DNA of 64,000 bases from Candidatus Paceibacter sp. GTDB taxonomy: Bacteria; Patescibacteriota; Minisyncoccia; UBA6257; 02-FULL-45-10c. The stretch is taken from the NCBI GenBank assembly GCA_020724845.1, contig DYGE01000005.1, forward strand, positions 6,116-70,115, written 5' to 3'. The notes beneath the pieces are model-generated. The model worked only from the letters and a program-made list of their open reading frames with translations, made no database searches and was not told where the DNA came from. Made by a program: the position numbers and the translations under genes. Positions 36,323 to 43,620 of the stretch are shown one piece after another (positions within the stretch are counted from its first letter, which is position 1; every line of letters starts with the position of its first letter).

Positions 36323-36362
36323 CTATAACTTATTATAAAAGATTTTTGCTTTCTTTTAAATG

Positions 36363-36434
36363 TGCCTGTGGGAGGGATCGAACCTCCGACCTCGGCCTTA
36401 TGAAGACCTCGCTCTACCACTGAGCTACACAGGC
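36363..36434 (-). tRNA. tRNA-Met (CAT) elongator type (or tRNA-Ile2/lysidine)
   Basis: Cloverleaf GCCTGTG-TA-GCTC-AGTGGTA-GAGC-G-AGGTC-TTCATAA-GGCCG-AGGTC-GGAGG-TTCGATC-CCTCC-CACAGGC-A. G1:C72 paired. CCA not encoded. Confidence 0.8.
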
Positions 36435-36565: not shown

Positions 36566-39106
36566 TTATTTTTTGAAAGAGGAAATTGCGCCTCCTATCA
36601 ATAATAACAGTCCGCCTATCAGATAAGGCAAGTTGCCATTAACCGCGTACAGCAATCCCAAAAGGTTGTTTGACCTTATAAATTTATCCATGGTTTCTTT
36701 GGTGCAGCCAAACTTAACTTGACCCTTTTCCTTTCCGGGAGCTTCCTCTAAGATTTGTCCGCAAGTACAGCCCTTAGTTTCGGTCATCCTGTATTTGCTA
36801 TTTACCAATTCTTTTGTTTTCGGATCCCTAGTCTTGAAAAACTCCCCTCCCAACCAAGCATAATGGTTTTCTCTTGGCTCTTCATCCAAAACCGAATTCG
36901 GACACCTATCAAAGAATTTTTCTTTAGCGGAAAGATTCAGCGTCGCTCCTTCTACCTCAAAAGTCACGATATTATTGCTTAAGTTGGTTAAAACAACCTC
37001 TTCTTCCTCTCCTTGAAATTCAACATCTAAAGTTTGACCAGGTTCTAGACTCCCGCCTCCAATTGTCGCACCGGATTCGTCTAAGATCTCGACTTCTACC
37101 GACCCAGGATTATCAAATGGTACGCTCACCGGACTGCCTAAAGTAACGGTCTGGCCCGCGGCAAGATTTACTTTAGTGGCCTTTCCTTTCACAGTAGAGT
37201 TCGGATCTCTTACTTCAATTTTAGGAAATGCCTGTAAGGCGGTCACTGTTATGGAGCCACAGGTTATTATAGCTGATTCACCAGCAGAATCCAACGTGAC
37301 CTCCGCGTTATTTGAGCAACTGATTATGCTCACAGCCGAGGTTCCAGAGCCATTAACAGTTACTAGAACGCCATCGGGAGAAACCGCGTCTTCAACTATT
37401 ACATTCCAGCCGCCACGGTCGGCAATGGCGCCATAGGTAGTTCCGTCATTAAAGTCATTTGAAGCGAACAAGCTCTCATCCGCGCCGGAAGTTTTATTTT
37501 TATCCACACTGTTTGCTATGCCATCGTTATCCGCGTCAGAATCGCAAGCGTCGCCTAATCCGTCAGCATCCTGATCGGCTTGATCGGCATTAGAAATCAA
37601 TGGGCAGTTGTCAGAAGAATCGCCTAGTCCGTCTTCGTCAGAATCGCCAGCGACCCAATTGTGCTCTGCCGGAGTCACATCAACGTTACCAACAGCATCA
37701 GTCGCTCTTACCGAGAAAGAGTGCGGCCCTTCGGAAAGCCCGCTATATGATTGGGGGCTTGCGCAAGAAGAAAATGGACTCAAATCCAGAGAACATTCGA
37801 AGGTCGCTTCCTCATCCGCGGAAAATTCAAAAGTGGCATCTAAGCTTGCAGTAATAGCTGGAGGAGCGGAAGTTATGGTAGTTTCCGGGGCGATAGTGTC
37901 CGCTGGAGTTTCCCAAGAAAGGATGGGAAAGCCGGAACCGCCAGAATTCCAGGCAGCCCCCCAGCTTGCCATTGGTTGATTATTCCCATCATAGAAATAA
38001 CTTTCATTATTCGGAATGGCCGAGCACCCATCTAAAGAAAAGCCATGTCCGGCGCATGCTGCTGGATTGCCGGAGTGGTCATTCCAATAAGAATTGACTA
38101 TTTGTCCTCCACCATTCCAGCCAACGCCAGCCAACCCACCGGCATAGCTGCCTCCAGAAACATTTCCGGTGGCGAAAGAATTTATTATTTTAGAAGTGCC
38201 ATAATAATTATTCGCCTCACCGACTATGCCGCCTCCGGCATAAGCTCCGTTAACATTTCCAGTAGCGAAGGAATCCTCTATAGAGATTAAGCTTACGCCC
38301 ACCAATCCCCCAGCCCTTCCACCTGAAATATTCGCGCTTGAATAAGAATTGGCTATTGATCCGCCGGAGCCATATCCCACCAAGCCGCCTGCGTAAGCTC
38401 CGGAAACATCTCCGGAAGAATTAGAGCTCGATACGCTGCCGCCGCCGAGATAACCGGTTAACCCGCCAACGTATCCGCCAGCCCTAACATTTGTTGACGC
38501 ATAAGAGTTCGTTATTGTCCCGCTGTTTGTTCCAACCAATCCCCCGGCCATATATTGGCTTCCGCTGGTAGCGCCGCTAATGTTTCCAGTAACGTAAGAA
38601 TTGGTTATCGTACCGGCGTTATTTCCCACCAGGCCGCCGACTTCGGTATTGCCGGCAACCTGCGCGTTCTCTAGGCCGACATTTTTTATCTGGGCGCTGC
38701 CGGTAGTGTACCCAAATAATCCAAACCTTTTCCTCTCTCCAACATTGGTTTCCATTCTATAAATGTACAGATTAGTTATTTTATAACCCTGACCATCAAG
38801 AGTGCCGCTAAAGGGAGTGGCCCCCCTGCCAACCGGATCAAAACCGGTATTTCCAACCCATCTTTCAGGATTCCAATTCACTGTATCAGAGCAGTCTATA
38901 TCATTGACTAGAATATAATTAGCGCTTGGGTCATTTTTCATTTCCTGAAGCTCCAAGCAAGTGGAGATCTGGTAAGGATTCCCCGCGCTTCCATCTCCGC
39001 CCGCGAAAGCGCCGACAAAAGCTGGATTTAATAATAAAACCGCAATAGAAGCGGCTGCAAAAACATAAAAAACGACTCTTGAATTAAGCTGATAATTTTT
39101 AAACAT
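36566..39106 (-). CDS. Large surface protein with a GLUG-repeat domain, thrombospondin type-3 calcium-binding repeats and a C-terminal hydrophobic anchor
   Basis: Signal peptide. Repeats of the form (Y/R)AGGLVG ... NSYA(S/T)GNV(S/N)G (GLUG-like). D-rich DxDxDGxxDxxD repeats (DSDEDGLGDSSDNC ... DQDADGLGDACDSDADNDG). C-terminal LIGGLLLLIGGAISSFKK. Confidence 0.65.
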   Translation of the reverse strand: MFKNYQLNSRVVFYVFAAASIAVLLLNPAFVGAFAGGDGSAGNPYQISTCLELQEMKNDPSANYILVNDIDCSDTVNWNPERWVGNTGFDPVGRGATPFSGTLDGQGYKITNLYIYRMETNVGERKRFGLFGYTTGSAQIKNVGLENAQVAGNTEVGGLVGNNAGTITNSYVTGNISGATSGSQYMAGGLVGTNSGTITNSYASTNVRAGGYVGGLTGYLGGGSVSSSNSSGDVSGAYAGGLVGYGSGGSIANSYSSANISGGRAGGLVGVSLISIEDSFATGNVNGAYAGGGIVGEANNYYGTSKIINSFATGNVSGGSYAGGLAGVGWNGGGQIVNSYWNDHSGNPAACAGHGFSLDGCSAIPNNESYFYDGNNQPMASWGAAWNSGGSGFPILSWETPADTIAPETTITSAPPAITASLDATFEFSADEEATFECSLDLSPFSSCASPQSYSGLSEGPHSFSVRATDAVGNVDVTPAEHNWVAGDSDEDGLGDSSDNCPLISNADQADQDADGLGDACDSDADNDGIANSVDKNKTSGADESLFASNDFNDGTTYGAIADRGGWNVIVEDAVSPDGVLVTVNGSGTSAVSIISCSNNAEVTLDSAGESAIITCGSITVTALQAFPKIEVRDPNSTVKGKATKVNLAAGQTVTLGSPVSVPFDNPGSVEVEILDESGATIGGGSLEPGQTLDVEFQGEEEEVVLTNLSNNIVTFEVEGATLNLSAKEKFFDRCPNSVLDEEPRENHYAWLGGEFFKTRDPKTKELVNSKYRMTETKGCTCGQILEEAPGKEKGQVKFGCTKETMDKFIRSNNLLGLLYAVNGNLPYLIGGLLLLIGGAISSFKK

Positions 39107-39240
39107 ATTTTTTATTTAATTATTAATAAATTTAAAGAAAGCGACTTGGAGTTTAATTCTAACATTTTGCTATAAAACTTAAAATGTAAAAGTGTGTATA
39201 AAGTAGGGCGCCTTTCCCAATCTAACCCTCCTCACAAATT

Positions 39241-39265
39241 AAAAAACGGCCAAAGCCGTTTTTTA
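39241..39265 (-). terminator. Intrinsic terminator immediately 3' of tRNA-fMet
   Basis: aaaaaACGGCcaaaGCCGTtttttt. Confidence 0.6.
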
Positions 39266-39270
39266 ATTTG

Positions 39271-39343
39271 TTGCGGGGGTTGGATTCGAACCAACGATCT
39301 TTTGGTTATGAGCCAAACGAGATAACCACTTCTCCACCCCGCG
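39271..39343 (-). tRNA. Initiator tRNA-fMet (CAT)
   Basis: CGCGGGGTGGAGAAGTGGTTATCTCGTTTGGCTCATAACCAAAAGATCGTTGGTTCGAATCCAACCCCCGCAA. Near-identical at both ends to E. coli tRNA-fMet, with a C1xA72 mismatch, the CUCAUAA loop and an A73 discriminator. Confidence 0.85.
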
Positions 39344-39367
39344 ATTATATTATATTGTAAATATAAT

Positions 39368-39814
39368 ATGAACGCAACCCAAACTAAGCTGCTGGGAATC
39401 GCCCGATCCCATCTGGGCGCTCCCTATGTGTATGGAGCCAAACCGGAAGAAATCCCTCAAAAAATGGATTGCTCATCTTTTACTCAATATATTTACAAGC
39501 AAATTGGCATAGATCTGGAAAGAAGCACCATCCTGCAGGCGGCCCATACGGGAGCAGAGATTAAACTTACAACTGACAACTTACAACTGACAACCGCACT
39601 AAGAACCGGCGACCTCTTGTTTTTCCGAGGAACTAGAGGGCATTACAACGATGAATTATTCCCCAACAGGGAAATTTATATAGGCCACGTTGCCATGTAC
39701 ACAGAAGACGAAAAGGCAATCCACGCGAGTTACCCGGAGGGAGTAATTGAACAATCACTCGCTGATATCATTAAAAAAAGAGGTCCGATTGTAATGGCGA
39801 AGAGAGTAATATGA
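39368..39814 (+). CDS. NlpC/P60-family cell-wall peptidase
   Basis: YVYGA...DCSSF (catalytic Cys), GDLLFF...GHVAMY (His). Confidence 0.75.
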   Translation: MNATQTKLLGIARSHLGAPYVYGAKPEEIPQKMDCSSFTQYIYKQIGIDLERSTILQAAHTGAEIKLTTDNLQLTTALRTGDLLFFRGTRGHYNDELFPNREIYIGHVAMYTEDEKAIHASYPEGVIEQSLADIIKKRGPIVMAKRVI

Positions 39815-40362
39815 AAATAAGCCACCTTGTTCCTGCTTATTCCCAAAGAATCCATATTAAAGACCGAAAATGGCAAAATCGGTCTTGCGGTATAGTTTCT
39901 CTGGCAATGGTTCTAAATAGTCTAGGAGGAAATACCACCCTCGGTAAACTGTTAAACATTGGACAAAATCTGAAGTTTACTTATAAGGATAAAAGTTATT
40001 CCGCTTATTCAAAAAAGGGCGGTTGGAATCATTGGGGACTAGTTCGGCTTGCGGAAAAACAGGGTTTTGAGGGGGTGGTGTACGATTGGAATGTTGACAA
40101 TGATGTGTGTAAAAAAATTTCTAAAGCGGAGGCTTTCAAAAAAACCATTCAACACCTGCGGAGATTTCCATTACTCGCCTCGGTGCATAACAGCTTTGAT
40201 AAGGCGCGAGGCGGACACCTCATCGTGCTTATCGGCGCCGATGGCGATAAGCTGCTCTTTAATGATCCTGACGCTAAGACCACAGGCGAAGTGAAAAAAG
40301 AAGTTGCGGTTAATAAGTTTCTTAATGGCTGGAAAAAGAGGATAATTATATTAAAAGCGTGA
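39811..40362 (+). CDS. Peptidase C39-like (papain-fold) domain protein
   Basis: WQNRSCGIVSLAMVLN (Cys) ... GGHLIVLIGADGDKLLFNDP (His). Overlaps nlpC by 4 nt, so it is translationally coupled. Confidence 0.55.
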   Translation: MKISHLVPAYSQRIHIKDRKWQNRSCGIVSLAMVLNSLGGNTTLGKLLNIGQNLKFTYKDKSYSAYSKKGGWNHWGLVRLAEKQGFEGVVYDWNVDNDVCKKISKAEAFKKTIQHLRRFPLLASVHNSFDKARGGHLIVLIGADGDKLLFNDPDAKTTGEVKKEVAVNKFLNGWKKRIIILKA

Positions 40363-40976
40363 ATTGGAAAAAATTTATAAAACTTACCGTTGTAATCTAT
40401 ATAGCTGTCGGCTTCTTTCTAATCTTCGGGAAAACATCCTGGTTCCCGGAGTTTTATAATCCCCGCTTTATGGGCGGACTGGCTTTTGTCTCCGTTTTGC
40501 TTATGTTAGCGCCGCACTTTGTCTTTAATTCCAACGGGGAGCAAAGGCAGCAATCTGTTTTTCTCCTCCAAAAGGTAGTCACGGTAACAATGATACTGAA
40601 CGGGCTCGGCGGGCTAGGCCTCTATCAGCTTTATAGATTCGGATTTGAATATGATAAACTGATGCATTTCGTGGGCCCTATGCTTTTCACTGTCAGCGCC
40701 AGCTATCTATTGCACAGTTGGTACGCGACCGACATCAAAAAGTCGCTCGGGGCCGCAGTCATCATAGTCATGCTATTTGGCATTGGCTGGGAATTTTTTG
40801 AACTTTTCGCCGACCTATGGTTCGGTACGGAAACCTTAGGCCAGTACGGCCAGGGCATTCCTGAAGATACGGTTGTTGATATTATTATGAATTCCTTCGG
40901 AACTTTATCCGGAGCGCTTTGGATAATGTCAAAAAAAGAATTTTGGCATGACTCGGAAAATTCTCACAAAATTTGA
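40359..40976 (+). CDS. Hypothetical polytopic membrane protein (third gene of the nlpC module)
   Basis: 5-6 predicted TM helices; 4-nt overlap with the upstream gene. Confidence 0.5.
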   Translation: MNWKKFIKLTVVIYIAVGFFLIFGKTSWFPEFYNPRFMGGLAFVSVLLMLAPHFVFNSNGEQRQQSVFLLQKVVTVTMILNGLGGLGLYQLYRFGFEYDKLMHFVGPMLFTVSASYLLHSWYATDIKKSLGAAVIIVMLFGIGWEFFELFADLWFGTETLGQYGQGIPEDTVVDIIMNSFGTLSGALWIMSKKEFWHDSENSHKI

Positions 40977-41033
40977 TTTTTTAGAGAGAAAAATCTATAA
41001 TCTAGCAAATCCTTTTAAGCCCAATAAGGGTTA

Positions 41034-41345
41034 ATGAGAAAGCACGGGCGTCGAACTTATATTGCAACCTATTGGCTGAAAACAACCATCCAGATCGCTC
41101 CTGGAATCGGCAGCGGAGACGAATGCCACAAACTGCCGGAGGAAGAAATAGCGGCCATTAGCGATGATAAGGCAATTGAGGGCGCTGAAACTAAAAGACA
41201 AGCGCTAGAAATCCTGGAAAACGCCGGAGAAAATCCTTATAACCTGGAAAAAAATGTGCTTTTGGTGAGTATCAAAGATAAGAGAAGCGGCCTAGAAATA
41301 TACAGCCGATTCACCGATCCGACCATAAACAAAACTTCGCGTTAG
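41034..41345 (+). CDS. Hypothetical small protein
   Basis: 103-aa ORF; no recognised motifs. Confidence 0.35.
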   Translation: MRKHGRRTYIATYWLKTTIQIAPGIGSGDECHKLPEEEIAAISDDKAIEGAETKRQALEILENAGENPYNLEKNVLLVSIKDKRSGLEIYSRFTDPTINKTSR

Positions 41346-41362
41346 CGAAGTTTTTTAATGAA

Positions 41363-42553
41363 CTAAAACATGAAAAGATACGGTTGAAAGAAGTCCGGGT
41401 AGGCCTTCACATAAGCACAAAAACAATAGATAAGACCGGAAACTATCAGGCCCAGCACCGCGTAAGCTCTAGCGCTTTTAATCGGGATCTCCCAGGGCTT
41501 AGTTAAGAGGTAGAGGACAAAGAAAGTCCCTCCGATTTTCTGCAGTTCGCCGATCCCGTAAACTGATCCGACAAAGAGCGCGGTAATGCCAGCGACGATG
41601 GTAACTATCTGTGAGAACACGTAATTCCGGCTTCCATCGTACCAGCGAGTAGAGCTGATGAGCAGCCCCAAATATCCGACAAAACTACCGAGGAAAAGCC
41701 CGCCATAACGGAATGATTCCAATGGACCAACTACCACTCCGGAAATCTGAAGCGCAACATAAACCGCCAGCACGGCAAAAGCCGCTATGGTGCCACGACC
41801 TAGCGCCGCCTCATCCTGGAATCCAATAAACGCGCAAAGCGGCAGCACCAACACGCTGAACCCCAGCGCGCACATCAGAGCAAGCACTCCGATAAAACCG
41901 ATTAGAGCGCTGTTATACCAGATAGCTACACCGCTCCAAACAACGAAAAGAATTGACCAGAAACTGACATAATTCTCTTTTAATTTATGGATCTCTCCGC
42001 TTAACAACAGCGAGGCGGCAAGAAGAATACAACCGGTAAAACCTACGTAGGGGGCCGTACCCGGGCCAAATTCATAACCTTGGAAAATCAAGCCAAAGCT
42101 TAGCACATAAAGCATAACCTCCCAGACCTCTTTAGGAATGGCCGTAAGCATATTAACTATAAAATCTCCTATCAAATATACTCCGCAGCCGACAACTCCA
42201 AAAATTGCCAACACCCAAAGAATGTTAGTAAAGGTAATAAAACCAGCAGCCTTCTGAAGAAGAGTGAGCTGATTAGCAGTTTGGGAGTCGGCATCCTGGC
42301 CGGCAAGAAGATCCTGTAAGCTGATTGGCTTGCCAGCTACCTTCGACGCTTGCTTAAGATATCGCTCTGTCCCCTGCTCCGCCTGCATGGATGAAACAAC
42401 CCCGTCCTTTACAAGCTCATGCAGAGCCGAAACTTTTGTCCTGATAGCAGCAAGATCATTTGTTTGCTTAGCAGAAAATTCCGTCGTATTGGCAAAAGCC
42501 AAACCAACGGTCAAAGACCAAAGCGCCGCGGCAATTACTAGCGCCCGTTTCAT
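41363..42553 (-). CDS. Hypothetical membrane protein with signal peptide and ~8 TM segments
   Basis: N-terminal MKRALVIAAALWSLTVGLAFA; C-terminal half strongly hydrophobic. Confidence 0.55.
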   Translation of the reverse strand: MKRALVIAAALWSLTVGLAFANTTEFSAKQTNDLAAIRTKVSALHELVKDGVVSSMQAEQGTERYLKQASKVAGKPISLQDLLAGQDADSQTANQLTLLQKAAGFITFTNILWVLAIFGVVGCGVYLIGDFIVNMLTAIPKEVWEVMLYVLSFGLIFQGYEFGPGTAPYVGFTGCILLAASLLLSGEIHKLKENYVSFWSILFVVWSGVAIWYNSALIGFIGVLALMCALGFSVLVLPLCAFIGFQDEAALGRGTIAAFAVLAVYVALQISGVVVGPLESFRYGGLFLGSFVGYLGLLISSTRWYDGSRNYVFSQIVTIVAGITALFVGSVYGIGELQKIGGTFFVLYLLTKPWEIPIKSARAYAVLGLIVSGLIYCFCAYVKAYPDFFQPYLFMF

Positions 42554-42640
42554 TTCTCTTACTCCTGTCCCGAGATTTCAATGTGCATCTGCGTTATATA
42601 ATATCCAAGAACAAGCAAAAGTCAACCCTGGATAAAATAT

Positions 42641-42682
42641 GTTTTAAAAATAAAAAGGCGCCCCAACACGTTGTTGGGGCGC
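42641..42682 (-). terminator. Intrinsic terminator of the GC-rich cassette
   Basis: Perfect 11-bp stem gcgccccaaca / tgttggggcgc followed by TTTTTATTTTT on the minus strand. Confidence 0.7.
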
Positions 42683-42704
42683 TGCTGGCCTTGGACCAGC
42701 CGGG

Positions 42705-42971
42705 CTACGGGAGAACGAACCCTTCCATCTCCTGCTTGATCAGCGAGGGGATGGATTGCTTCATCCTCTCCTCGTAGTGCTTCGTGATCTGGTCGTTCTT
42801 CTCGGGGTAGCCGTTGGTGTACCAGCGATCTCCCTTACGGACCAGGTGCGCCGTGACCGTCTGGGAGTTGCCCTTGAACCGGAACGTCACCTGCGCCCGG
42901 CGACCGTTCCGAGAACGGCTGATCACCTGCGCGACTTCCAACACCGGCACTTCCGCGGTTTGGCCTTTCAT
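42705..42971 (-). CDS. Foreign high-GC small protein (88 aa), unknown function
   Basis: About 60% GC with GC3-rich codons (GGC, CGG, CTG, ACG) against a ~48% host. Perfect SD GGAGGG 7 nt upstream, whereas host genes lack SD. Has its own promoter and terminator. Confidence 0.65.
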   Translation of the reverse strand: MKGQTAEVPVLEVAQVISRSRNGRRAQVTFRFKGNSQTVTAHLVRKGDRWYTNGYPEKNDQITKHYEERMKQSIPSLIKQEMEGFVLP

Positions 42972-43019
42972 CTTTCATCCCTCCTTGGGGTTTACAGATT
43001 GCACCGGTACATCATGGTG

Positions 43020-43056
43020 CTGACTAAATGCTAGCACATTTTATTGCTTTTGTCAA
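43020..43056 (-). promoter_or_regulatory. Consensus-like sigma70 promoter for the GC-rich cassette
   Basis: On the minus strand: TTGACA (43056-43051), 17 nt spacer, TAGCAT preceded by TG (43033-43028). Confidence 0.5.
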
Positions 43057-43394
43057 GAAGGAGGATTCCTATACAAAAGGTCGAAGCAAAATGATCCGGT
43101 TAAATGGCGCAGCAAACAGTGATGAAAGGCATCTGATAAGATCAAAGCCCATCCAATACAAGATAGCGCCATGCCGGCAATACCGCCAATCCCCAGATAA
43201 TAACAAAGCAGTAATATCACCGCGCCAACGTAACCATGATGAATTCTTACGCCAAAAGTATACTCGCCAATGAACGTAGTATCTTTCGCGCTTTCCTTGC
43301 CCAGCACGAAACGGAGAAAGCAAGTTGCCAATTCAATGATTATGGCCAAAAGGAAAGTTGCGACAACAATAACTCCGGCGGTCAGCTCTACCAC
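43053..43394 (-). CDS. Hypothetical small membrane protein
   Basis: 113 aa with three hydrophobic helices. Confidence 0.45.
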   Translation of the reverse strand: MVELTAGVIVVATFLLAIIIELATCFLRFVLGKESAKDTTFIGEYTFGVRIHHGYVGAVILLLCYYLGIGGIAGMALSCIGWALILSDAFHHCLLRHLTGSFCFDLLYRNPPS

Positions 43395-43513
43395 GGCAGG
43401 CTCCTAGATCAACTTTTGAACAAGCTTATTATATTTTAAAATATAATTGCAGCATTGTGAACCTTTTCGGGAAAGCTTTAGTTTTCCTGACTCACTTTTT
43501 GTTCAAATCCGGT

Positions 43514-43539
43514 CGCAAAAATAAAAATTGGACTTAAGT
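43514..43539. terminator. Palindromic terminator 3' of tRNA-Asp
   Basis: aaaaATTGGACTTAAGTCCAATttttt. Confidence 0.6.
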
Positions 43540-43545
43540 CCAATT

Positions 43546-43620
43546 TTTATTTTTGCGGGCGCGACCGGATTTGAACCGGCGGTCTCCTCCGTGACAGGGA
43601 GGCGTGTTAACCAGGCTACA
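43546..43620 (-). tRNA. tRNA-Asp (GTC)
   Basis: GGGCGCG-TG-GTGT-AGCCTGGTTA-ACAC-G-CCTCC-CTGTCAC-GGAGG-AGAC-CGCCGG-TTCAAAT-CCGGT-CGCGCCC-G. Discriminator G73. Confidence 0.85.

Follow-up and report, generated by a model that had tools for sequence, protein, structure and literature searches.

In thrU-tyrU-glyT-thrT-tufB of E. coli, a protein-coding gene lies inside a tRNA operon, and tRNA genes also bound tRNA-targeted integrative islands. Among described enzymes, the closest to those considered here are the C40 (NlpC/P60) gamma-D-Glu-diamino-acid endopeptidases, such as YkfC (which lacks an export signal), CwlT, SagA, and MepS, and the C39 or C39-like peptidases (PF13529), such as the domains of ComA, LahT, and PCAT1 and the YvpB-like 3ERV of B. 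anthracis. The third relevant group is the Lipocone superfamily of membrane proteins. In Burroughs et al. 2025, the proteins of its Wok family, which the DUF2238 model partly covers, are predicted to be integral-membrane enzymes that act on the phosphate-containing head groups of phospholipids or of polyisoprenoid carriers such as lipid II, and the ancestral Lipocone active site is given as His(H2)/Glu(H3)/Asp(H4) (PMC12419801). The same paper describes a patescibacterial operon, other than ours, with a VanZ-2 Lipocone, an ATP-binding cassette (ABC) system, and a papain-like peptidase, for which a role in peptidoglycan modification is predicted (PMC12419801). Here we analyze a 64-kb stretch of DNA from Candidatus Paceibacter sp. 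(contig DYGE01000005.1), which we call the window, and in it the interval between an initiator tRNA-Met (tRNA-fMet) gene and a tRNA-Asp gene.

Seven open reading frames (ORFs), A to G, nearly fill this interval (Table 1), and the widest gap is 161 bp. Genes A and B encode cysteine peptidases of the NlpC/P60 and C39-like types, and gene C encodes a membrane protein. We conclude that the interval is largely an old conserved neighborhood of the Parcubacteria, and not an inserted mobile island. With moderate confidence, we favor the view that it is a conserved slot that holds a housekeeping module, close to the membrane, that deals with the peptides or precursors of peptidoglycan. The protein families are known; the conserved neighborhood and its links to tRNA genes and aminoacyl-tRNA synthetases are new as far as the searchable literature goes. 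In that literature, we did not find the NlpC/P60 + C39-like (+ Wok-like) neighborhood, its embedding in a tRNA operon, or its links to PheRS or LeuRS. Similarly, the passages of PMC12419801 that a keyword search returned do not describe a neighborhood of Wok, NlpC/P60, and C39 genes.

We compared the interval to related loci (L-numbers) by using tblastn with the window's proteins and by using ARAGORN. The window's GatA is 75% identical to that of L086, which is from a metagenome-assembled genome of Candidatus Harrisonbacteria, and its identity to the GatA proteins of Jorgensenbacteria, Colwellbacteria, and other relatives is 63-71%. (The same contig was also found in JGI metagenome and Logan assemblies.) The backbone ligA-gatC-gatA-(h176)-[tRNA-Asp, tRNA-Met, tRNA-Met]-pheS-pheT recurs in Parcubacteria (L005-L017, L027, and L045), and tRNA-Asp comes after gatA or h176 in L005, L006, L008, L011, L012, L016, L017, L027, L045, L102, and L103. 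The spacing of the tRNA genes is just 2-3 bp in L006, L012, and L013 and a few hundred bp in L008 and L016. The three loci L011, L027, and L045 each have one NlpC/P60 gene between tRNA-Met and tRNA-Asp, and its identity to A is 38-43%. NlpC/P60 and C39-like domains lie together between these tRNAs in L017, L093, and L094, as separate genes, and in L103, as one fused ORF. The order in L086 is ligA-gatC-gatA-h176-...-C39<-NlpC-tRNA-fMet, while L087 has pheT-pheS-tRNA-Met-large surface protein-tRNA-fMet-NlpC-C39-C homolog, with the same 4-nt overlaps as in the window. L087 is the only other contig with the full trio A-B-C.

Overall, homologs of A are found at the syntenic site in L011, L017, L027, L045, L086, L087, L091, L093, L094, L103, and L110, and relatives with NlpC/P60(-C39) at this site have GatA proteins that are 53-75% identical to the window's. 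Identity to A falls in step with identity to the core proteins: 59% in L086 (GatA, 75%), 62% in L087 (PheS, 74%), 42% in L011 (GatA, 63%), and 40% in L103 (GatA, 57%). Such a trend would be expected if A descended vertically. Furthermore, all of the compared loci that hold NlpC/P60(-C39) there have the peptidase genes in one and the same orientation with respect to gatA and pheS, so the plus-strand orientation in the window is ancestral. The ATGA overlap is also seen again among these relatives. The initial annotation had read the opposite strand as a feature that sets the block apart from the flanking genes, but it does not point to an insertion.

The other contents of the slot do vary. Besides the peptidases, the window has genes C to G, L086 has a gene for an 838-aa protein, and L005, L092, and L102 have a MurD-like ligase; other loci have nothing. 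None of the related loci has a counterpart of E, F, or G. The expectation that this interval would be variable was therefore right in that its content ranges from 2-3 bp to over 4 kb, but A to D are conserved at the syntenic site and only E to G are absent from the relatives.

In L011, L027, L045, L093, L094, and L103, the peptidase gene or genes are co-directional with the tRNA genes on either side, with gaps of 11-69 nt. Because these gaps are too short for separate promoters or terminators, the peptidases in these relatives are most likely co-transcribed with the tRNAs. The arrangement is like that of thrU-tyrU-glyT-thrT-tufB in that protein-coding genes are embedded co-directionally among tRNA genes. 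The cargo is a peptidase pair instead of a translation factor, and in the window the tRNAs face the other way, so co-transcription would have been lost.

Gene A matches PF00877 with 58.2 bits (cut-off 23; E = 9e-16), and its catalytic triad is intact: C35 (in DCSSF), H107 (GHVAMY), and H119 (IHAS). The homologs of A form 91 clusters, nearly all of which are bare catalytic domains of ~146 aa from Patescibacteria. The Cys motif is present in 86 of the 91. None of the 91 has a hydrophobic N-terminus, and A itself has no signal peptide. The best matches of A in a sequence search of the Protein Data Bank (PDB) are peptidoglycan endopeptidases. In other words, A resembles the C40 endopeptidases in its Pfam domain, its Cys-His-His triad, and its best PDB matches, and it resembles the cytoplasmic YkfC in lacking an export signal. 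Unlike YkfC, CwlT, SagA, and MepS, A is a bare 148-aa catalytic domain, without SH3b, LysM, or lipobox; it belongs to a Patescibacteria-specific subfamily; and it adjoins tRNA or aminoacyl-tRNA synthetase genes and a C39-like partner.

Gene B matches PF13529 (Peptidase_C39_2) with 36 bits (cut-off 24; E = 1.3e-8), and its catalytic residues (Q12, C26, H136, and N151) are invariant in our alignment. B has no signal peptide, and its catalytic Cys is already at residue 26. An AlphaFold2 (AF2) model of B, with a pLDDT of 95.3, has a C39-type papain fold. The top Foldseek hits for this model are the C39 domains of ComA, LahT, and PCAT1, and the uncharacterized 3ERV, all with a probability of 1.0 and TM-scores of 0.55-0.66. 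Other structural neighbors are the phytochelatin-synthase-like Alr0975, which is a gamma-Glu-Cys transpeptidase, and, more distantly, a pseudomurein isopeptidase. B shares both the fold and the Gln-Cys-His-Asn/Asp set with the C39 and C39-like peptidases. Unlike the C39 domains of peptidase-containing ABC transporters (PCATs), B is neither fused to nor beside an ABC transporter, no leader-peptide substrate was found for it in the interval, and it recurs together with an amidase of the NlpC/P60 or CHAP type, in fusions as well.

An exhaustive profile search for the B family identified 544 representatives (P-numbers) at E < 1e-10, and we examined the architectures of the best 150. Among these, 85 are short stand-alone proteins like B. 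Another ~50 have an N-terminal extension, in most cases with a hydrophobic segment near the N-terminus, which suggests that the extended members may be anchored or secreted. Six of the best 150 are NlpC/P60-C39 fusions (P0009, P0105, P0114, P0126, P0143, and P0150), and the family also includes fusions of the types C39-NlpC/P60 and C39-CHAP and a fusion with a sugar-nucleotidyltransferase (P0182). Taken together, the fusions and the conserved overlapping gene pair demonstrate that A and B are functionally coupled.

Gene C has a sub-threshold match to PF09997 (DUF2238; 20.7 bits, cut-off 26.4; E = 4e-4). DUF2238 is listed for both C and its L087 homolog in precomputed tables; our own search with the L087 homolog gave nothing at 1e-3, and a PDB sequence search with C gave nothing. 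The motifs DKLMH, WEFFELFAD, and DTVVDIIMNSFG of C are kept in the L087 homolog, which is 42% identical (this is a comparison of two sequences, by inspection). The patterns that they have in common are DKxxH, WExFE...D, and DTxVDxIxNxxG. These give the active-site pattern described for Lipocone proteins (PMC12419801), with a His in H2, a Glu in H3 (and a second Glu at +3), an acidic end of H3, an Asp in H4 with a downstream polar residue, and a Gly. A low-confidence AF2 model from the single sequence (pLDDT of 57) has helices at 3-23, 35-55, 60-93, 98-123, 126-155, 157-164, and 169-202. This pattern would be in keeping with the 2-TM N-terminal extension, 4-helix core, H3-H4 handle, and cytoplasmic tail of the Wok family, but just three segments of C pass a strict hydrophobicity cut. 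C is a candidate Wok/DUF2238-like Lipocone membrane enzyme, with a matching active-site pattern. Like the Wok family, it would have two N-terminal transmembrane segments, a 4-helix core, and His/Glu(xxGlu)/Asp. C looks more like this arrangement of 2+4 helices than like the five transmembrane segments that were first proposed. As in the patescibacterial VanZ-2 operon, genes for papain-fold peptidases would here be coupled to one for a Lipocone protein. Unlike in that operon, C is Wok-like, there is no ABC system, and the peptidases lack a coiled-coil membrane anchor.

In contigs of other lineages, the same two peptidase families are linked to genes for aminoacyl-tRNA synthetases. In L114 (464-2965), L115 (5337-7856), and L117 (partial), an intact NlpC/P60 domain, with its Cys/His/His, is inserted in the B5 domain of PheRS-beta, where it replaces ~5 residues. 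Directly downstream is a C39-like gene and then gyrB. The arrangement occurs in contigs of four different metagenome samples. Since PheRS-beta is cytoplasmic, the inserted NlpC/P60 domain must work in the cytoplasm. Also, members of a distinct clade of B (168 aa) overlap the start of leuS in L107 (3654-6568), L109, L112, and L121 (by 4 nt in L107, L109, and L121), or lie directly upstream of leuS without overlap (L108 and L113); tRNA-Ala often precedes them. As a separate observation, L089 (818-2695) has NlpC-C39, then a single-chain mitochondrial-type PheRS (375 aa), and then a 246-aa protein with weak matches to the GNAT family Acetyltransf_6 and to ATE_C, the C-terminal domain of Arg-tRNA-protein transferase. 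We did not use this possible ATE/Fem-like transferase as evidence, because it was seen just once among the loci examined (the near-identical L090 ends before this gene).

How might these proteins function? We propose that the slot is a long-standing part of an ancestral tRNA-Met/tRNA-fMet/tRNA-Asp cluster, between ligA-gatC-gatA-h176 and pheS-pheT, and that its core would be the anciently linked, signal-less papain-fold pair A and B. In the window's own clade, the tRNAs would have been turned round, and the pair would have gained the translationally coupled C (also in L087) and D (also in L091). A and B may act jointly on a single peptide or isopeptide from peptidoglycan, which they would meet at the membrane or on its cytoplasmic side. 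Candidate substrates are the stem peptides of muropeptides or of nucleotide-linked or lipid-linked precursors, and C might act on that precursor too, at the phosphate-containing head group of its lipid. Overall, the module would serve the housekeeping turnover, salvage, or editing of cell-wall precursors. E, F, and G would be lineage-specific additions to the slot, and F may have been acquired recently from a high-GC donor and not yet ameliorated.

The link to peptidoglycan is supported by the nearest solved relatives of A, by the structural neighbors of B, by the anchored or secreted relatives of B, and by the P0182 fusion. Several points weigh against our proposal. The peptidoglycan substrate is deduced from the enzyme families and the gene context. 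Export is the rule for canonical peptidoglycan hydrolases, while A and B have no signal peptide. The recurrent neighbors of the pair are translation genes (tRNAs, pheST, and leuS) at least as often as wall genes. Furthermore, the MurD-like neighbor belongs to the same shuffled but persistent synteny block (it is by gatC in L007, L009, and L010) and so says little about function. For C, the Wok/DUF2238 match falls short of the Pfam threshold, the one homolog has no match, and the model is poor; C accompanies the pair in just one other contig (L087). Finally, the slot of L005, which is the closest GTDB relative by GatA (71%), has neither A nor B, so the pair is not universal.

In the initial annotation, everything from tRNA-fMet to tRNA-Asp was read as an accessory island, gained by horizontal transfer and inserted at a tRNA gene. 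This is very unlikely, even though the interval does resemble tRNA-targeted integrative islands in being bounded by tRNA genes, in its variable content among relatives, and in having one gene of foreign composition (F). Inverted copies of tRNA 3' ends lie beside both tRNAs, and in L086 the syntenic tRNA-Asp has a group I intron by a LAGLIDADG gene, so mobile elements do visit the site. However, no integrase, recombinase, or transposase is among the called genes, or in the Pfam table, of the identical contig within +/-10 kb, and gaps of at most 161 bp leave no room for a remnant. Nor are there direct att repeats. When we searched the 64-kb window for direct repeats of the 20-22-nt 3' ends of all three tRNAs, allowing up to 3 mismatches, only the genes themselves matched; the extra copy of the tRNA-Asp 3' end is inverted, 44 nt away, and such inverted copies recur at unrelated tRNAs of the relatives. 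A general repeat search of 35.5-44.5 kb found short repeats at chance levels, plus the repeats within the gene for a Glug surface protein, which account for most of the region's direct repeats. Unlike the genes of an island, most genes here are of native composition and have syntenic counterparts in distant relatives: the codon usage of A to E and G is native (GC3 of 0.40-0.52, compared to a reference of 0.476 +/- 0.050), and A to D are syntenic, with their orientation kept, in relatives down to ~53% GatA identity. We also found no viral relatives of B, E, or F in IMG/VR, no plasmid relatives, no defense systems (PADLOC gave no match), and no phage genes near the interval in the gene and Pfam table. 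The only PHROG matches were those of A, to the lysin domains of tail proteins. A phage lysis cassette (endolysin plus holin) was considered and rejected, given that B has no IMG/VR relatives and that no phage genes are nearby. The island model is largely refuted for A to D, and for E to G it is possible only as an insertion that did not depend on an integrase.

If the slot is instead an old one, its product could still be something other than a wall-precursor module. Another early suggestion was that the trio processes a secreted peptide, with B as a bacteriocin-type C39 leader peptidase for a double-glycine precursor. The closest solved folds to B are indeed the peptidase domains of ComA, LahT, and PCAT1, and B has a weak match to TIGR01193 (16 bits, as compared to a cut-off of 524). 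But the TM-scores to C39 domains are just 0.55-0.66, B is a free-standing protein of 183 aa whose constant partner is an NlpC/P60 amidase, the interval has only ORFs A to G, none of which is a candidate double-glycine precursor, ABC-transporter families are missing from the Pfam table for +/-10 kb, and across the ~40 loci examined, no conserved gene for a GG leader and exporter lies by the homologs of B. We give this idea hardly any credence. A role in the cell wall, which was also suggested at the outset, is still the most plausible function for the peptidases; the version with epibiotic attachment fares worse. In that version, A and B would be exported without signal peptides, with C as a holin or export partner, and would remodel the cell's own wall or attack the host's wall during epibiotic attachment. 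A does match NlpC/P60 domains of phage tail-lysin or endolysin type as well as peptidoglycan endopeptidases, translational coupling joins a membrane protein to two hydrolases that lack signal peptides, many relatives of B are anchored or secreted, and the large Glug/TSP3 surface protein (36566-39106) adjoins. But C has enzyme-like polar motifs of the Lipocone type and not the features of a holin, most genomes with the pair have no C, the NlpC/P60 insert in PheRS-beta must act in the cytoplasm, the ancestral position in a tRNA operon suggests housekeeping expression that is coupled to growth, and phage genes and viral relatives were not found. We consider non-classical export unlikely. Alternatively, the pair might work with the translation apparatus, on aminoacyl-tRNA or on the products of aminoacyl-tRNA-dependent transfer. 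In at least 6 lineages, tRNA-Met and tRNA-Asp flank the pair at distances of 11-69 nt; NlpC/P60 is found within the B5 domain of PheT (L114, L115, and L117), with a C39 gene directly downstream; a clade of B overlaps or adjoins leuS; and L089 has NlpC-C39, monomeric PheRS, and the weak ATE_C/GNAT match. Conversely, small genomes are dense in translation genes, and these contexts represent two or three independent events; the ATE-like neighbor is a single case; the secreted members of the family cannot use tRNA; and we know of no precedent for NlpC/P60 or C39 enzymes that act on aminoacyl-tRNA. This seems quite improbable to us, as do the specific examples that we can imagine, namely trans-editing, the aminoacylation of wall precursors for cross-bridges, or the modification of protein N-termini. 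Still, the embedding in tRNA operons, the insertion in PheRS-beta, and the coupling to leuS do suggest a tie to aminoacyl-tRNA. There is a slim chance that the pair is an undescribed housekeeping system of the Patescibacteria that is tied, both physically and functionally, to the aminoacyl-tRNA machinery. In such a system, and this is just as doubtful, the thiol enzymes would use or police aminoacyl-tRNA for the aminoacylation or editing of peptidoglycan precursors or protein N-termini, and the Lipocone enzyme would handle the lipid-linked substrate. We prefer the reading of a housekeeping module for peptidoglycan precursors.

Table 1. Positions in the window of the tRNA genes, the ORFs of the interval, and the terminator between D and E.
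Feature	Position	Strand	Basis or remarks
tRNA-Met(CAT), elongator-type	36362-36434	-	ARAGORN + Rfam
tRNA-Met(CAT), initiator-type	39270/1-39343	-	ARAGORN; Rfam 66.1 bits
Gene A, NlpC/P60 (C40) cysteine hydrolase, 148 aa	39368-39814	+	PF00877
Gene B, C39-like papain-fold cysteine peptidase, 183 aa	39811-40362	+	PF13529
Gene C, multi-pass membrane protein, 205 aa	40359-40976	+	Sub-threshold PF09997
Gene D, soluble protein, 103 aa	41034-41345	+	ORF; L091 homolog
D/E bidirectional terminator hairpin	41331-41354		-13.6 kcal/mol, z -5.9
Gene E, membrane protein, 396 aa	41363-42553	-	ORF; hydrophobic segments
Gene F, 88 aa, GC-rich	42705-42971	-	ORF inside cassette 42645-42990
Gene G, small membrane protein, 113 aa	43053-43394	-	ORF; 2-3 transmembrane segments
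tRNA-Asp(GTC)	43555/6-43630	-	ARAGORN + Rfam; directly downstream of h176-gatA-gatC-ligA

The layout of the interval is mostly as first described. ARAGORN and Rfam agree on a tRNA-fMet at 39271-39343 on the minus strand. A tRNA-Asp on the minus strand is also present, but the coordinates first given for it (43546-43620) are ~10 nt too low, and that end would cut the gene. Each tRNA does have its own terminator, with strong hairpins of -26.9 and -46 kcal/mol. The plus-strand trio of NlpC/P60, C39-like, and membrane protein genes with 4-nt overlaps is borne out by the Pfam matches and by the junctions, which are ATGA for A/B and GTGA for B/C. The predicted large multi-TM protein is E, which has a signal or anchor and ~8 transmembrane (TM) segments, and the predicted 3-TM protein is G. 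Rfam found no RNA families in the interval other than the tRNAs; sub-threshold "miRNA" matches merely reflect long hairpins.

The tRNA-Met at 39270 is initiator-like: it has a C1xA72 mismatch, which its orthologs share in our alignment, and two rather than three G:C pairs at the base of the anticodon stem. It diverges from gene A, whose start is 24 nt away. The tRNA-Met at 36362 is a member of the same ancestral cluster. An initiator tRNA-Met also lies 21-26 nt upstream of the start of the NlpC/P60 gene in L086, L087, L091, and L110. In L110 (5206-5279), this tRNA and the peptidase gene share a strand, whereas in the window, L086 (790-863), L087, and L091 they are on opposite strands. The strands of tRNA-Asp and the second tRNA-Met vary similarly. 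The tRNA genes of this cluster flip in place between relatives.

The gene between the two tRNA-Met genes (36566-39106, minus strand) encodes a surface protein of 846 aa, which has GLUG repeats, thrombospondin type 3 repeats, and, at its C-terminus, a transmembrane anchor. Large homologous surface proteins (41-49% identity) are in the same place in L087 and L091.

Gene D had been described as an orphan, but a homolog with 35% identity lies directly after the C39 gene in L091 (pairwise E = 2e-12), so D is apparently part of the conserved neighborhood. D has native codon usage, a promoter-like site at 40973-41001, and its own terminator. E has an N-terminal signal or anchor, then a soluble region of ~90 aa ahead of its transmembrane segments, and is of native composition. 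None of D, E, F, or G had a match in Pfam, NCBIfam, PHROG, or PADLOC. E and G had no tblastn match in the related loci that were searched, E was not similar to the other window proteins of the region (blastp), and neither E nor G was similar to the neighboring ORFs of related loci (phmmer). By these comparisons, E, F, and G (41363-43394) are a lineage-specific group.

By composition only, F is clearly foreign. Its cassette (42645-42990, minus strand) has a GC content of 0.60 with sharp boundaries, and the GC contents of F at the three codon positions are 0.56/0.38/0.85; the GC3 is 7.5 standard deviations above the reference. This periodicity indicates that F is a real coding sequence. The cassette comprises a strong Shine-Dalgarno sequence, 88 codons, two GC-rich hairpins, and a U-run, and its terminator has a predicted fold of -32.7 kcal/mol. 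A second contig (L085), which is 99.5% identical and comes from another sample, has F as well. Searches of an index of 5.8 billion proteins (word-limited) and of plasmids and phages found no homolog of F except itself. The initial annotation's view of a foreign gene in a GC-rich cassette is upheld as to composition, while no donor or homolog turned up. We rejected an integron cassette attC as an explanation for the hairpin of F: the core sites are off consensus by eye, and there is no intI.

The terminator hairpin of tRNA-fMet (39219-39286) has a z-score of -4.3. In its far arm, the tRNA's 3' end is repeated in inverted and degenerate form (inverted repeat I1: 32 nt, 84% complementary), and this element is kept in L086 (13 nt exact) and L087 (11 nt). 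Beside tRNA-Asp, there is a near-perfect palindrome of 76 nt (43501-43576; inverted repeats I2 and I12), with a 34-bp stem and a z-score of -11. Its first 16 nt (43501-43516) are an exact inverted copy of the T-arm/acceptor of tRNA-Asp and pair with the 3' part of the tRNA across an AT-rich hairpin. For this element, there are two matches, as compared to 0.03 expected.

More broadly, for 13 of the 69 tRNAs of the related loci, an exact inverted copy (at least 10 nt) of the 3' part of the tRNA's own T-arm/acceptor lies 39-69 nt downstream; in the controls, this was so for 1/69 upstream and for 0/69 with shuffled sequences. Inverted copies in tRNA trailers were seen in the window and in L007, L008, L010, L011, L017, L086, L087, L088, and L093. 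The tRNA trailer may thus pair with the 3' portion of the tRNA across the terminator hairpin. In L086 (Candidatus Harrisonbacteria JACROC010000003, 4627-4935), an intron of ~220 nt interrupts the anticodon loop of the syntenic tRNA-Asp. The intron matches the group I model RF00028 with 44.7 bits (E = 7.7e-10), slightly less than the gathering score, and is directly adjoined by a LAGLIDADG_3 ORF. ARAGORN gives no call for this tRNA.

These results remove a false lead, that of an island integrated at a tRNA gene. In its place is a testable lead: a widespread, signal-less enzyme pair of candidate-phyla bacteria that has kept its place in a tRNA cluster by pheST and gatCA over deep divergence. Little is known of how ultra-small cells that depend on a host make and recycle their walls, and the pair, together with a predicted lipid-head-group enzyme, is a candidate for the salvage or editing of wall precursors in such cells. 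The locus would also be a new genomic context for the recently defined Wok family of Lipocone proteins.

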